A program made the translations under genes and the position numbers. The notes below the pieces were generated by a model, which ran no database searches, was not told the origin of the DNA, and worked only from the letters and a program-made list of their open reading frames with translations. From the NCBI GenBank assembly GCA_902500055.1, contig GCA_902500055.1_4131.1: a stretch of 64,000 nucleotides of DNA, one strand, 5' to 3'. Numbering within the stretch: position 1 is the stretch's first letter; the number at the start of each line of letters is the position of its first letter. The stretch is from Escherichia coli. GTDB lineage: Bacteria > Pseudomonadota > Gammaproteobacteria > Enterobacterales > Enterobacteriaceae. Positions 1 through 29,090 of this stretch are shown one piece after another.

Positions 1-248
1 TCATGACAGTAAGAAATAGAAGAATCGCTATACATTACTACATCACGAATTGCAACTTCTTTTGTAAAACCTTTTTTGACGGAAATTTGAAAGTCATTGT
101 ATGGGAAGATTGTATATCCATCGTATGCATTTGATGTACTGATACCAAATGGTGTAGTAGAATTCAGAAATTCGTTGATATGTTCAAGTACTGAATACTT
201 TTTAAAATTAAGAAAATCTGAAATGTCTAACATATATACAATCCTCAT
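1..248 (-). CDS. hypothetical protein, 3' end beyond window edge; possible famA member
   Basis: Open minus-strand frame from ATG at 248 (MRIVYMLDIS...) runs off the window; YNDFQISV resembles the famA core. Confidence 0.35.
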   Translation of the reverse strand, partial: MRIVYMLDISDFLNFKKYSVLEHINEFLNSTTPFGISTSNAYDGYTIFPYNDFQISVKKGFTKEVAIRDVVMYSDSSISYCH

Positions 249-264
249 AAATTTAGACAAAAAA

Positions 265-396
265 TTAGTCGAGAATAAATCTCGACTTGTGTTTTACTTT
301 ACCATTTTTCATTTCTTTTTTACGATCCACATGTGTCTGAGGCTTGTTAAACTCATTCATGTGTTTCTGTACGAAATTGTTTACTTTCTTAGCCAT
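265..396 (-). CDS. small Lys-rich basic protein (43 aa)
   Basis: Hand-translated; ATG at 396 with GGAG 6 nt upstream; MAKKVNNFVQKHMNEF... Confidence 0.35.
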   Translation of the reverse strand: MAKKVNNFVQKHMNEFNKPQTHVDRKKEMKNGKVKHKSRFILD

Positions 397-398
397 AC

Positions 399-872
399 TT
401 ACTCCAAACTGGGATCTTTAACTGTTAGACTTTCTATGTCACTCGCATAAAGAACTACATTGGATTGATTTTCAGACACTTTAAAGTCGTGATAACTGTC
501 TTTGACGATAAAATTATCTAATATAAACCCTTTACTACAGCACATCATAATTTTATCATCTTTGATTGTGTAGGTGTTTTTCTTTTTACGTACTTCAGAT
601 TGTGGTGTAATACTATCGTTATTACGAATAACACAATCAATATATTGTTCATTTGTACTCATAGGCATACCCATGATAAACGAGTTTTCAGTACTGATTG
701 TTAGTATAAAAACGTTAGTATTTGGGTTGTGAAAAAAATCATGCATTGTCTTGCTACACAAAAATAGACATTGAATAATGTCCTTCACATTAAACATTAT
801 ATCATGAACTTTGAATGCGTCCAACTCTAAAATGTCATCAATTTTCCCATTTTCAACAGTTTTAATCTCCAT
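399..872 (-). CDS. hypothetical protein (degenerate famA-like)
   Basis: 157 aa ORF in minus-strand operon chain; no clear FQxS core. Confidence 0.5.
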   Translation of the reverse strand: MEIKTVENGKIDDILELDAFKVHDIMFNVKDIIQCLFLCSKTMHDFFHNPNTNVFILTISTENSFIMGMPMSTNEQYIDCVIRNNDSITPQSEVRKKKNTYTIKDDKIMMCCSKGFILDNFIVKDSYHDFKVSENQSNVVLYASDIESLTVKDPSLE

Positions 873-914
873 GATCTATCCTTGATCTTCTAATGCACTC
901 CATGTGCGTTTTTA

Positions 915-1412
915 TTAAGTCACTGCATTATATTTCTCTATAGCATTAGTAATATTTAATATAGCTTCAGGAACCATTTCTTTATTGTATTCACGTTTTA
1001 AATTTTCCATTTTCTTAATAATTTCCAAGAAAAATGGCAAAATACATGAAGTATCTGTAAAATTACATGAGTACAAAGTACTCATTTGAAATAATTCACC
1101 TGAATCAATATTAAGAGTATTGTATTCCTTAACAATGTTTTCGTTTGAATTGAAAATGTGAAATACTGTTCCCATGTGATGAAGATATACACCATTCTCA
1201 TTTTGAATATTGCATGGTGTGATTACAATAGCAGTGTTGTCAATATTATTTACTATTGATAAACGCAGACTATGTAAACCAAAAATAACAGTGCAATCAC
1301 TTGAACTGCTTTGAATTTGGTCAGCGGTTTGTGTAACACTTGTAATATTATCTCCATCAAGACAACTCTTGATTTTATCAAATGAATTTTTCATTGATTT
1401 AGTTAGATACAT
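915..1412 (-). CDS. famA paralog (FQxS-core), hypothetical protein
   Basis: 165 aa; core GELFQMSTLY. Confidence 0.6.
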   Translation of the reverse strand: MYLTKSMKNSFDKIKSCLDGDNITSVTQTADQIQSSSSDCTVIFGLHSLRLSIVNNIDNTAIVITPCNIQNENGVYLHHMGTVFHIFNSNENIVKEYNTLNIDSGELFQMSTLYSCNFTDTSCILPFFLEIIKKMENLKREYNKEMVPEAILNITNAIEKYNAVT

Positions 1413-1816
1413 TTATGAACACCTTCGAAATATTTGATTAATGATTTTATCATATCGCTACTAATGCCATGTAAGTCAACACCTAAACACTCGTATTGAA
1501 AAAAATCAATATCCTCCAGCGTGTTTAGATCAATTTCCACCTTATCATGACCCAACGAATTCATAATAACACTGTTATCATTAATTGTCAAGAAAGTTTT
1601 ATTACTTGAACCTAAAAAGATTTTAACATGTTTATTTGGCATTGCATCATAAGACAACGATTGTGAACCATAAATGTATGTACCTTCCATCGAACCAGTA
1701 TCTATAAAGTATAGACGAATACCTTTATGGTATTTTGAATCCTTAGTGATCGCCTCTATTAGTTCATCTGTGGTTGTTAACCTTATTTCTTTCTTCTCTG
1801 AATTGCTCAAATGCAT
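1403..1816 (-). CDS. famA-like paralog, hypothetical protein
   Basis: 137 aa; core DIDFFQYECL; 53-nt overlap with neighbour, start uncertain. Confidence 0.5.
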   Translation of the reverse strand: MHLSNSEKKEIRLTTTDELIEAITKDSKYHKGIRLYFIDTGSMEGTYIYGSQSLSYDAMPNKHVKIFLGSSNKTFLTINDNSVIMNSLGHDKVEIDLNTLEDIDFFQYECLGVDLHGISSDMIKSLIKYFEGVHKCI

Positions 1817-26979: not shown

Positions 26980-27359
26980 TTAATAGGATACTCCTTTCCT
27001 TGTACTATATATGACAAAATCCATCCGTAATGAATAGGATGATTTTTGTCTGAATCAGGAATAAAATATAAAGCTGTACTTGGATTATGACTGAATAAAT
27101 CTTTATTGTCAAATGTAAAATGTGATAATATAATTTTCCTTGTACTTGGACGAATAACATTCTTAACACTGAACTCTGTTCCTTTGTATTTCTCCGAGAA
27201 TTCAAATAATGCATCTGTAATTAAATCACTGAACTCTTGGATTACAAAATTCTGATAAAATGCATTAATCTCTTTTAACTCTGTATACAATTCACTTCTG
27301 GTATTCAAAAGAAATATTACTTTTTTAAGATCCTGAACTATTTCTGGATTCATATTCAT
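26967..27359 (-). CDS. hypothetical protein
   Basis: 130 aa ORF. Confidence 0.5.
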   Translation of the reverse strand: MNMNPEIVQDLKKVIFLLNTRSELYTELKEINAFYQNFVIQEFSDLITDALFEFSEKYKGTEFSVKNVIRPSTRKIILSHFTFDNKDLFSHNPSTALYFIPDSDKNHPIHYGWILSYIVQGKEYPIKWKD

Positions 27360-27591
27360 TTATCTCATTCTGTAACTTAAGCATCAAAATTTGCATATTA
27401 ATTTTTTGTAAAAGGTGCTTGATAAATTTCTGTGCCATTTCTTCTTGTTCTTTTGTACCAAGATAAAATAACAGATTAAATTCTGATAATCGCAAAGAAA
27501 AATCTTCATCACCACCCTTTAAACAAAAATCCCTGTACTTTGTAGCGTACAAATATTGGTTTACCTTTTTATAATACCCTGTGTTTTGCAT
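27325..27591 (-). CDS. famB paralog
   Basis: 88 aa; core FYLGTKEQEEMAQKFI. Confidence 0.55.
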   Translation of the reverse strand: MQNTGYYKKVNQYLYATKYRDFCLKGGDEDFSLRLSEFNLLFYLGTKEQEEMAQKFIKHLLQKINMQILMLKLQNEINEYESRNSSGS

Positions 27592-27779
27592 ACTATCTCC
27601 GTTCGCAACGAATTTATATAATAATGAACAAATTGTTCTTGTGAACGTGTTCCAAGAAAAATAAACATATCAAACTCTGTTGTTTTTAAATTCAATGCAT
27701 CTTTTGTAAAATTCCTGTTGAATTCCCTGTACTTTTGGGTCTTCCATTCTTGATTAATTGTCTTGTATATCGATTTCAA
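27561..27779 (-). CDS. famB paralog
   Basis: 72 aa; core FLGTRSQEQFVHYYI. Confidence 0.55.
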   Translation of the reverse strand: MKSIYKTINQEWKTQKYREFNRNFTKDALNLKTTEFDMFIFLGTRSQEQFVHYYINSLRTEIVCKTQGIIKR

Positions 27780-28080
27780 TGATTCTCCCTGATGTACCTT
27801 GTATTAGCTTATCATACATATCGAGCATCACTTTTTGAATACTAATTAGTACTGGCATCGTGCAAATATCAATGTCGTATACTAAGCTGTACTGGAATAA
27901 TTCCTCTTCCTGCATTTGTACTAAATTAGGTAAAAGATAATTGTCTGCCTCTTCATCCTGGTACTTGAAATGCATAACACCATCCTTTTTGTACAAAAGA
28001 ATGTCAATATCACCTAACTCATCAGCATAACCAAAAATACATATACTCGATGTTTTTGCTATATTAAATTTCATCTCCAC
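27754..28080 (-). CDS. famA paralog, hypothetical protein
   Basis: 108 aa; core EEELFQYSLVY. Confidence 0.6.
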   Translation of the reverse strand: MEMKFNIAKTSSICIFGYADELGDIDILLYKKDGVMHFKYQDEEADNYLLPNLVQMQEEELFQYSLVYDIDICTMPVLISIQKVMLDMYDKLIQGTSGRIIEIDIQDN

Positions 28081-28316
28081 CTCTCACCGTCAGCACAAGA
28101 GTACTGGTACGTTGTCGTTAGGGTAGGGACCATGTTTGTAATGGGCATGTTGTTAACAATAACCGTAACAGGCATAAGAATCGTCTCTTCTCTACTCTGT
28201 CCTGTCCTTGTACAATTCATCTTCTGCATTTCATCTGAATCCATGAAATACAATACAAATGGTGCAATCCCAAGAACAATACACAAAACGATAAGGAAAT
28301 TTAAAAAATTTAACAT
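28071..28316 (-). CDS. small membrane protein
   Basis: 81 aa; N-terminal hydrophobic helix FLNFLIVLCIVLGIAPFVLYF. Confidence 0.4.
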   Translation of the reverse strand: MLNFLNFLIVLCIVLGIAPFVLYFMDSDEMQKMNCTRTGQSREETILMPVTVIVNNMPITNMVPTLTTTYQYSCADGERWR

Positions 28317-28375
28317 AATTTTTACCCTATGATTAACGTTAGTGTACTATATCAGTAATGAAAAGTACTGTCAAG

Positions 28376-28777
28376 CTAGTATTGCACTGTTCTAATGAAA
28401 GTACCTTTACTCATGGATTTAAGCTTATGAACCTCTTCCTGTATACCCTTGATTAACCCTAAAGGTATAGGTACATCACATATTAAGCTGTACTGAAAGT
28501 ATTCTTCTTCAGATAAAGTACTAACATCTGGGACTCCAATTTTAGTTAGATAATCTTGATGTGTTGACCAATAAATTATATCTTCAGTACTATTGTACTC
28601 CCCATATACTGAACAATATTGATGAATATCTTTCCTGTACCCTTGAGCAATAAAGAACTTATCTACTGCATTACCAGCATTAATAGAATTCACTTCGATT
28701 GTCACAGTACTTGAGCTTGTATAACTCTTAATATTATCAGTACTCTTAATACTCAATAATGTGTTCTTCATAAGCAC
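28376..28777 (-). CDS. famA paralog, hypothetical protein
   Basis: 133 aa; core EEEYFQYSLIC. Confidence 0.6.
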   Translation of the reverse strand: MLMKNTLLSIKSTDNIKSYTSSSTVTIEVNSINAGNAVDKFFIAQGYRKDIHQYCSVYGEYNSTEDIIYWSTHQDYLTKIGVPDVSTLSEEEYFQYSLICDVPIPLGLIKGIQEEVHKLKSMSKGTFIRTVQY

Positions 28778-29090
28778 TATTAGGCTCCTGTTTAGATTCT
28801 TTCATTAGTACTATCATCTTATGTACTAATGGCATAGGGAACTCTAAATCCCATACTAATGATTCCTGGAAGTATTCCTCTGGTGATAAAGTACTTAAAT
28901 CTTTAATATCAACGTGCTTGTATATTTTATTTTCGTAATTAACAAATGATATATATAAATCATCAACATAAGAATCATAAGTAATTGTGAATGGCTTACC
29001 CTTGTAATCCATTACATCTCTACATAGACTACTTTTGATATATGTATGTTCAAATGATTTATATACCTTGAGTTGTATATTAGTTTTCAT
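28746..29090 (-). CDS. famA paralog, hypothetical protein
   Basis: 114 aa; core PEEYFQESLVW. Confidence 0.6.
   Translation of the reverse strand: MKTNIQLKVYKSFEHTYIKSSLCRDVMDYKGKPFTITYDSYVDDLYISFVNYENKIYKHVDIKDLSTLSPEEYFQESLVWDLEFPMPLVHKMIVLMKESKQEPNSAYEEHIIEY

Follow-up and report, generated by a model that had tools for sequence, protein, structure and literature searches.

Lineage-specific expansions of single proteins are an already known phenomenon in jumbo phages, and one survey calls the zinc-ribbon expansion of Bacillus phage G, with about 35 copies, unprecedented (Iyer et al. 2021, PMC7824862). Here we describe a larger array, comprising 43 to 47 copies of a protein family that we call famA, in a 64,000-nucleotide stretch of DNA (hereafter the window) filed under Escherichia coli (assembly GCA_902500055.1, contig GCA_902500055.1_4131.1). 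Like the zinc-ribbon set, famA is a very large expansion, in a jumbo phage, of one small protein with at most an inferred function; unlike it, famA has a predicted fold of an unrelated kind, lacks a Cys/His ligand set and is acidic rather than nucleic-acid-binding. Term searches of the survey (PMC7824862) turned up no mention of famA, and it names phage 121Q, whose DNA closely matches the window, only in another context. Elsewhere, paralogues were reported to make up about 10% of the proteins of phage RaK2 (PMC3622015), and the authors of the CBB genome counted 22 paralogous open reading frames (ORFs). We found no description of famA, its core motif, its size or its fold in the literature on 121Q, PBECO4, RaK2, CBB, phAPEC6, Sharanji, EJP2, G17 and PA5oct.

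With respect to gene arrangement, the closest described systems are unidirectional blocks of small, mostly orphan genes that lie near a long terminal repeat and carry host-type promoters, as do the terminal-repeat genes of PA5oct and CBB_390-546. PA5oct uses host RNA polymerase and expresses its small terminal-repeat genes early (PMC7318152), and in CBB, RpoD-like promoters cluster in CBB_390-546, a run of short hypothetical ORFs that its authors suspect to be early host-takeover genes (PMC5259590). These blocks consist mostly of unrelated genes, whereas about 70% of a 28 kb stretch of the window is made up of one family. The host-takeover module of SPO1 and the pre-early genes of T5 are similar blocks of small, mostly orphan genes near a long terminal repeat, and they too are mostly unrelated to one another. 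Diverged tandem paralogs near a genome end that are linked to host interaction are found among eukaryotic viruses, in the MGF110/360/505 families of African swine fever virus and the host-range families of poxviruses. These share with famA a short conserved core and a variable remainder, but they have no sequence or structural relation to it, belong to viruses of another host domain and vary in copy content where famA is stable. Finally, Ocr, ArdA and Arn are small, very acidic, early DNA-mimic anti-restriction proteins; their charge is shared by a subset of famA copies only (pI, or isoelectric point, 4.05 to 4.7), most being moderately acidic, and with regard to the folds of Ocr and ArdA, no PDB chain matched the famA fold.

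The famA array and its core motif

We scanned all 257 ORFs of the window, of which 76 lie on the minus strand below 29.1 kb, 104 on the minus strand above it and 77 on the plus strand. The pattern FQx[ST] occurred in 35, 2 and 1 of these ORFs, respectively, and in combination with an acidic context in 37, 0 and 0. All-against-all BLASTP resolved sub-clusters of 13 and 10 ORFs and several pairs without linking them fully. A profile hidden Markov model (HMM) seeded with nine copies and iterated over the 257 ORFs converged in six rounds. The 39 ORFs that it retained, with E-values between 1.8e-10 and 2.3e-32, all lie on the minus strand within 915-29090, and nothing elsewhere in the window came near significance. 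When the sequences were aligned with MAFFT, F and Q of the core fell into one column pair in all 39 sequences, as they did in all 42 of a second alignment, and the only invariant columns were these two and the start methionine; the FQ matches are thus positionally homologous. Taking as the definition of the superfamily a profile match with F-Q in register, an acidic pair before it and x-S-[LT]-[VIL]-aromatic after it, 39 firm and four probable copies in the window belong to it, and about four further ORFs carry a decayed core in register (Table 1), which brings the number of copies to between 43 and 47.

The original prediction, made from the letters of the DNA alone, had described about 46 consecutive minus-strand ORFs of 100-230 residues, some others being degenerate, each with an F-Q-x-S core roughly two-thirds into the protein. 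A tandem paralog family with this core is what the single profile and the alignment recovered, and the count, the sizes (103 to 227 amino acids, median 165), the position of the core (0.49 to 0.74 of the protein length) and the presence of several degenerate versions all agree with it. The ORFs are not strictly consecutive, however, because some 15 to 20 ORFs scattered among them, four of which are copies of a second family (famB, described below), are not demonstrable famA members; a Pfam scan of ten interspersed non-members gave no match. Similarly, the proposed share of about 45% of the window is correct for the span of the array but not for the genes, the members covering 20.2 kb, or 31.5% of the window and 72% of the array span. 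The consensus of the core, taken over the window copies together with 180 database relatives, is [ST]-E-E-x-[YL]-F-Q-x-S-[LT]-[VIL]-[YFHW]-[DN]. F and Q were present in 100% of 43 window copies and of the 180 relatives aligned to the profile, and conservation in the relatives was 96% for [LT], 87% for the S, and 76% and 72% for the two E positions.

By megablast, the window is DNA of an Asteriusvirus, a jumbo coliphage like 121Q, PBECO4 and slurp01; members of this genus are jumbo myoviruses that infect E. coli and Salmonella and have genomes of about 350 kb. Phage 121Q matches positions 15000-25000 at 96.3% identity (opposite strand, record positions 164522-175101; the 121Q coding strand corresponds to the window minus strand), and slurp01, PBECO4, phAPEC6 and others match them at 94 to 96%, with 36 records in all; the slurp01 ortholog of one window protein matches it at 100% identity. 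In 121Q, the genes downstream of the array code for a DNA methyltransferase, an NrdB-labelled protein, an RNA ligase, a polynucleotide kinase, a DNA ligase, a ClpP-like protease and a DnaJ-like protein. A weak additional copy, 121Q gp435 (E 1.8e-4; positions 14272-14850 of the examined 121Q segment), lies outside the array, about 10 kb downstream of it and beyond the start of the window.

Although tblastn with a single member returned only the 36 Asteriusvirus records, a HMMER search of 1.84 billion cluster representatives retrieved 142 clusters at E <=0.001, all of them stand-alone proteins of 65 to 249 amino acids. Their named sources were Asteriusvirus, E. coli-labelled contigs and the Klebsiella phages RaK2, K64-1, Muenster, KP13-7 and RCIP0023. 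RaK2 carries at least 27 copies with the same core (RaK2_00363 to RaK2_00439) at a syntenic position upstream of the dam methylase, and a metagenomic contig 96% identical to Escherichia phage EJP2 carries at least 20 copies in 19.5 kb. Many of the database relatives labelled 'Escherichia coli' are encoded by whole Asteriusvirus genomes inside bacterial assemblies.

Conservation, origin of the copies and predicted fold

Each core position of the profile carries 1.4 to 1.9 bit of information, as against 0.2 to 0.5 bit at positions outside the core, in keeping with the divergent N-terminal halves noted originally. Outside the core, further conserved positions are two Tyr in the strand region and one aromatic residue near the C-terminus, and no His, Cys, Asp, Lys or Arg is conserved anywhere in the profile. 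With strong conservation confined to E, E, F, Q, S, L/T, V/I and aromatic positions, the best reading of the profile is that famA proteins are not enzymes. Synonymous codons are mixed at the invariant positions (TTT 23 and TTC 20 for F; CAG 24 and CAA 19 for Q), and the core Ser is encoded by both AGY and TCN codons; selection is therefore on the protein, and conservation of the core at the DNA level can be ruled out. The proteins have a median pI of 5.0 and a median net charge of -9, the most acidic being those of the block 16820-19144 (pI 4.05 to 4.67; net charge to -26 in 162 residues). Pooled over the members, the ratio of nonsynonymous to synonymous substitution rates (dN/dS, or omega) against PBECO4 is 0.29, which indicates purifying selection on famA, and the interspersed non-members gave the same value. 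Orthologs differ by 7.6% in the part N-terminal of the core and by 5.6% in the C-terminal part (P 0.007).

The best-matching paralog of a copy is its immediate neighbour in 9 of 42 cases, compared with 2.0 expected (permutation, P ~0.001), which points to tandem duplication; 16820-19144 and 19154-20384 are clear local tandem blocks. Paralog pairs are mostly 10 to 30% identical, with bit scores mostly of 25 to 40, and the array is syntenic gene for gene with that of PBECO4, except for 12979-13422. Given this low identity, the PBECO4 synteny and the presence of arrays in RaK2 and the EJP2-like contig, the amplification is old, and a recent 'accordion' amplification was ruled out on the same grounds. 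Along 915-29090, orthologs with 100% amino-acid identity to PBECO4 stand beside others with 66 to 84%, a patchiness that suggests frequent patchwise recombination within the array and mosaic exchange between phages. That a single ancestral gene was amplified in a virulent phage, as had been proposed, is supported by the common profile, the invariant core, the predicted fold and the adjacency of best paralogs. On these comparisons, famA is a true multigene family, old and specific to the lineage of Rak2-like jumbo phages (Asteriusvirus, Alcyoneusvirus, EJP2).

Two members were modelled with AlphaFold2 (AF2). For 17250-17738, with the 39 paralogs as alignment input, the model has a mean predicted local distance difference test score (pLDDT) of 87.7 and a predicted template modelling score (pTM) of 0.83, and its core blocks have a pLDDT of 94 to 97. 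It consists of an N-terminal helix (residues 3-22), seven short strands (28-97) and short helices at 99-103 and 109-115, the second of which ends in F113-Q114 and is followed by a turn, a long helix (121-135), a strand and a last helix. The model of the short form 10760-11122 is of lower confidence (pLDDT 69.8) and contains four strands, the motif helix and the long helix; again, the core is its best part (91 to 95). The family is thus predicted to share one alpha/beta fold, in which a beta-meander would be followed by a short helix ending in F-Q, a turn (S-[LT]-[VIL]-aromatic) and a long amphipathic helix, with the long forms predicted to add the N-terminal helix and extra strands.

No PDB chain matched the fold, and no member has a PDB sequence match. 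Foldseek hits in BFVD came from Rak2-like phages only, and the named ones were all to phages 121Q, SP27, RaK2, GAP32, Serratia phage BF and Yersinia phage fHe-Yen9-04. In Pfam-A, none of the 39 members scored above the cut-off (RINGv at E 0.13 and DUF3741 at E 0.006 appeared for one member each), and in NCBIfam, three isolated matches among the 39, with E 0.002 or worse, were not meaningful, which bears out the earlier statement that no named family could be recognized. Every window copy matches at least one PHROGs group, with E-values to 1e-142, but the 39 copies are split over at least 26 groups, all of function unknown and with no superfamily or common core recorded: phrog_12674 (15 copies), phrog_13866 (13), phrog_9317 (11), 15629, 34017, 22855, 19795 and about 19 more. 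Taken together, famA is a protein superfamily undescribed in the papers searched, probably with a new fold.

Transcription units, terminal repeat and putative role

The original prediction also held that the genes are joined by ATGA or TAATG overlaps. Such joins (ATGA or TAATG/TGATG) occur at 20 of 67 junctions and are not a general rule, most of the others being short overlaps or gaps; in all, 61 of the 67 are an overlap or a gap of 12 nt or less. The array contains six gaps of about 40 nt or more, several of which have good sigma-70-type sites, two with an upstream terminator hairpin (Table 1). A further promoter-like site, at 34989-35016, lies upstream of a unidirectional block that runs through famB into famA. 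The record of phage G17 holds both copies of a terminal redundancy reported to be about 20 kb (PMC6563267), and by alignment of its ends, its position 1 corresponds to window position 35056 and its last base to 55652. Both ends of the G17 record align to 35056-55652, which makes this stretch the equivalent of the approximately 20 kb direct terminal repeat, and the packaged order inward from the right end is terminal repeat, famB and famA. All three are transcribed inward, with the famA array located 6 to 34 kb inside the terminal repeat, and the GC skew changes sign at about 55.6 kb, where the G17 genome physically ends. Mass spectrometry of phAPEC6 virions identified 62 proteins, none of them between gp347 and gp549 (PMC7247149). 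Since the array falls within that interval (gp442c of phAPEC6 is a famA relative, and its ortholog of 17741-18181 maps to 306 kb of that genome), we read famA as non-structural.

Acidic, soluble proteins without catalytic-type conservation that stay out of the virion and are maintained by purifying selection in several phage genera are suggestive of a repertoire of binders. We accordingly lean, if only modestly, toward famA as a set of early proteins, neither structural nor enzymatic, that would bind their targets in the service of host takeover or anti-defence. This role, also put forward originally, would fit the sigma-70-like promoters, the neighbourhood of the terminal repeat and the absence from the virion. 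In such a scheme, the FQ core would be the folding nucleus of a fixed scaffold, with the S-E-E...F-Q...S-x-x-aromatic residues nucleating the fold in the form of helix caps and a hydrophobic staple, and the poorly conserved sheet and N-terminal parts would form the specificity surfaces. The approximately 45 paralogs would then be a stoichiometric binder repertoire, each copy directed at a different host or competitor macromolecule, for purposes that would likely be host takeover, anti-defence or, for the most acidic copies, DNA mimicry. Expression would be early, by host RNA polymerase from sigma-70-type promoters, through translationally coupled operons read inward from the terminal repeat.

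Several considerations weigh against this scheme. Early timing, the binding function and the identity of the targets are things that we infer. Genome-wide, promoter-like sites are no more numerous than in shuffled controls (120 vs 129; 90 vs 102 expected), and the promoter argument consequently rests on the placement and quality of a few sites. A core with a purely structural role seldom has an invariant Gln, which could instead reflect a shared ligand. The copy content is stable between Asteriusvirus isolates, whereas in a fast arms race copies should be gained and lost more often. The fold, moreover, is probably novel in comparison with PDB and BFVD, which were the structures searched.

The complete invariance of F and Q in window copies and relatives, while the remaining protein drifts, would also be expected of adaptors or decoys for a common hub, in which the FQ segment would be a shared docking or cleavage peptide and the variable part would pick cargo or targets. 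Candidate hubs are the sliding clamp, a chaperone or a protease such as the phage ClpP-like enzyme, and the ClpP-like and DnaJ-like proteins encoded downstream in 121Q are in line with the latter two. The core also resembles the beta-clamp-binding motif (QL[SD]LF or QLxLxL) and the site of the potyviral NIa protease of tobacco etch virus (TEV; E-x-x-Y-x-Q↓S/G). The likeness to the clamp motif is partial (Q-x-S-L-V-F), the famA motif being internal and ordered in both models, and the TEV-type pattern is literal in few copies (EEMYFQGS, EEGYFQGS), with the S one residue later in most; the latter likeness is probably a coincidence, and the related genomes inspected have no annotated Gln-specific protease. 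A docking peptide or protease site is normally exposed and extended, whereas the FQ segment is the best-ordered part of both models, at a helix end followed by a tight turn, and the conserved positions after the Q are hydrophobic or aromatic, as in a buried core. A common-hub family thus seems unlikely to us. So, though not quite to that degree, does a bolder form of the binder scheme in which each of the approximately 45 paralogs would neutralize a different host defence or housekeeping protein and, in its radical version, deliver it through the FQ segment to one hub, for example the phage ClpP-like protease; if true, famA would be the largest single-fold counter-defence or degrader library known in bacteriophage. 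As a separate observation, EEMYFQGS (11088-11582), EEGYFQGS (15755-16204) and EEFFQGS (25231-25797) match or nearly match the TEV site, and such cores are a practical caveat for expressing famA proteins with TEV-cleavable tags.

Three other explanations fare worse. Paralogous acidic proteins are packaged in other phages, namely the internal proteins of T4 and the inner-body proteins of phiKZ, and famA products could likewise be delivered with the DNA to act before phage gene expression. Phage phAPEC6 has a capsid inner body (PMC7247149), and the Q-S junction could in principle be a maturation site. Yet no phAPEC6 virion protein comes from the array interval, and the array is a block with sigma-70-type promoters apart from the structural genes. 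Furthermore, the prohead protease is T4 gp21-like, and enzymes of that type cut after Glu, not Gln; we give packaging scarcely any credence. DNA- or RNA-binding regulators, that is, paralogous transcription or nucleoid factors of the kind proposed for the phage G zinc-ribbon set, would accord with the interpretation of large lineage-specific jumbo-phage expansions in that survey (PMC7824862), and the family contains a helix-turn-helix-like hairpin, but the charge of famA disfavours such a role, which we judge very unlikely. The array might also be largely dispensable filler: in a genome with packaging capacity to spare, tandem duplicates could have persisted through chance or hitch-hiking, none with a function of its own. 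About eight copies have a decaying core, one is missing in PBECO4 and no phenotype is known. Against this stand the omega value, the intact reading frames, the tight translational coupling and the retention of array and core in Asteriusvirus, RaK2-like and EJP2-like phages despite the low paralog identity, and we find it highly improbable.

Diverged copies of one protein take up about 8% of a 350 kb phage genome. Once they are seen to share a scaffold, the 45 or so hypothetical proteins of each genome become one tractable problem, in which a single structure, a single mutational logic (that of the FQ core) and a defined set of variable surfaces could be screened against host targets and defence systems. 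The family is conserved in jumbo phages of E. coli, Salmonella and Klebsiella that are under development for therapy.

Feature coordinates and neighbouring gene families

Table 1 Features of the famA array and associated promoter-like sites, all on the minus strand; E, E-value against the famA profile HMM.
Position	Feature	Length (aa)	Core or site	Evidence and remarks
915-1412	famA member	165	GELFQMSTLY	E 3e-16, motif
1403-1816	degenerate famA-like		EDIDFFQYECL	E 0.28; 0.034 with enlarged profile; in register
1764-2237	degenerate famA-like		IEATFFTQSTMV	in register, not significant
2231-2767	famA member	178	EELLFQYSLIL	E 1.3e-12
3190-3774	degenerate famA-like		LEERLFQELCV	in register, not significant
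4363-4914	famA member	183	EEQHFQLSTLH	E 2.4e-19
4915-4975	gap		TTGACT-N17-TACATT	promoter-like site overlapped by terminator-like hairpin
4976-5557	famA member	193	EENYFQLSTIH	E 9.6e-16
5541-6050	probable famA member		EEIEFQNNTL	E 3.7e-4; in register
6475-7053	famA member	192	EEELFQMSTVI	E 1.6e-18
7040-7624	famA member	194	DAFIFQKSLLD	E 6.2e-14
7621-8199	degenerate famA-like		NVLMFNANLLYD	Q lost; full-length profile alignment, E 0.7
8200-8274	gap		AAAGACCC..GGGTCTTT; TTTACA-N17-TATACT	terminator hairpin + T-run, then promoter-like site with TG (8215-8243)
8275-8841	famA member	188	DEVLFQLSTIC	E 9.2e-21
8786-9349	famA member	187	ESAMFQLSLIH	E 1.3e-21
9872-10375	famA member	167	EESYFQNSLIY	E 1.4e-23; only clearly basic copy (pI 9.1)
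10363-10776	famA short form	137	PDELFQYSLVF	E 6.9e-19
10760-11122	famA short form	120	EEELFQESTIS	E 3.5e-19; second structure model
11088-11582	famA member	164	EEMYFQGSCIH	E 8.1e-28
11579-12055	famA member	158	EEEFFQYNTVY	E 5.2e-23
12056-12114	gap		TTGACA-N18-TATAAT	perfect, 12/12, extended -10 TG (12089-12118)
12115-12699	famA	194 as longest ORF	QEYYFQLSLLF	E 2.6e-26; PHROG match from residue 17
12659-13000	famA short form	113	EGELFQESLVF	E 8e-15
12979-13422	famA member	147	EEEMFQYSTVF	E 1.5e-17; without PBECO4 ortholog
13346-13708	famA short form	120	EDELFQESLVW	E 2.4e-15
14307-14867	famA member	186	EENIFQNSVLH	E 7.4e-19
15222-15758	probable famA member		DEQCFQLSCTD	E 0.059; profile positions 12-133 aligned
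15755-16204	famA member	149	EEGYFQGSTVY	E 8e-21
16509-16823	famA short form	104	ESFIFQESLVW	E 1.8e-10
16820-17272	famA member	150	EEYYFQNSTVY	E 2.8e-32
17250-17738	famA member	162	EEYYFQNSTLY	E 2.3e-32; modelled, net charge -26
17741-18181	famA member	146	EEYYFQQSLIF	E 4.1e-28
18178-18648	famA member	156	EDYYFQQSTIY	E 1.4e-24
18650-19144	famA member	164	EEYYFQQSTVY	E 1.6e-30
19154-19513	famA short form	119	DGELFQEALVF	E 4.1e-18
19510-19869	famA short form	119	AGELFQAALVF	E 4.8e-18
19866-20384	famA	172 as longest ORF	DAALFQEALVF	E 4.8e-22; PHROG match from residue 52
20385-20439	gap		TTGACA-N17-AAAAAT	promoter-like site
21048-21671	famA member	207	DESLFQYSTMY	E 2.6e-18
21610-21954	probable famA member		EAARFQHETAF	E 0.41; 2.3e-4 with enlarged profile
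21951-22466	famA member	171	EESYFQQSLIY	E 2.6e-17
22671-23294	probable famA member		DAFMFQLSLVH	E 7e-3; in register
23287-23817	famA member	176	EEEYFQKQCVH	E 2.7e-21
23814-24497	famA	227 as longest ORF	EDEYFQYSTVH	E 8e-20; PHROG match from residue 45
24418-24924	famA member	168	KEWWFQQNLVH	E 4.6e-18
25231-25797	famA member	188	EEEFFQGSLLV	E 3e-20
25769-26080	famA short form	103	DEELFQQQLVI	E 7e-17
26070-26618	famA member	182	EAEVFQKSLIT	E 1.7e-24
27754-28080	famA short form	108	EEELFQYSLVY	E 1.1e-18
28317-28375	gap		TTGACA-N17-TATAGT	promoter-like, 11/12, TG (28346-28374)
28376-28777	famA member	133	EEEYFQYSLIC	E 1.9e-20
28746-29090	famA	114	PEEYFQESLVW	E 5e-17; first copy in transcription direction
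34989-35016	promoter-like site		TTGACT-N16-TATTAT	inner edge of terminal-repeat-equivalent region

Other paralogous families lie beside and, in part, within the array. The famB family comprises about 30 minus-strand ORFs of 65-92 residues with a core of the 'LLGTNxQEE' type, located at 29080-34958 between famA and the terminal-repeat region, with four copies inside the famA array (14857-15244 and 27325-27779). Ten minus-strand ORFs of about 60 residues at 55926-58095 form a third family, famC. Either family (famB at 29.1 to 35 kb or famC at 55.9 to 58.1 kb) as a relative of famA was ruled out by hhalign, with a probability of 0.1%. By hhalign, famC is also unrelated to famB, and a group of four small minus-strand paralogs at 58695-59452 is unrelated to famA and famB alike. 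By BLASTP, three larger plus-strand ORFs (60309-61304, 61317-62036 and 62499-63644) are paralogs of one another.

The region equivalent to the terminal repeat contains an intergenic cassette of about 95 nt, which occurs at least 15 times in 35883-54033 (for example at 38286-38380, 46069-46163 and 50773-50867). On the minus strand, the cassette consists of TTGACA-N17-TATAAT, a GC hairpin (GGGGAGAA..TTCTCCCC), a ribosome-binding site and an ATG, and to judge from its sequence each small gene of this region seems to have its own consensus promoter and a hairpin in the 5' untranslated region. A second element, AAAGGGATTGACTCCGGTCAGTCCCTTTGCTATTATAT, is present in three exact minus-strand copies (36503-36540, 39258-39295 and 42264-42301), with none expected by chance, and is a hairpin with a 12-bp stem that holds a TTGACT -35 box and is followed by TATTAT.

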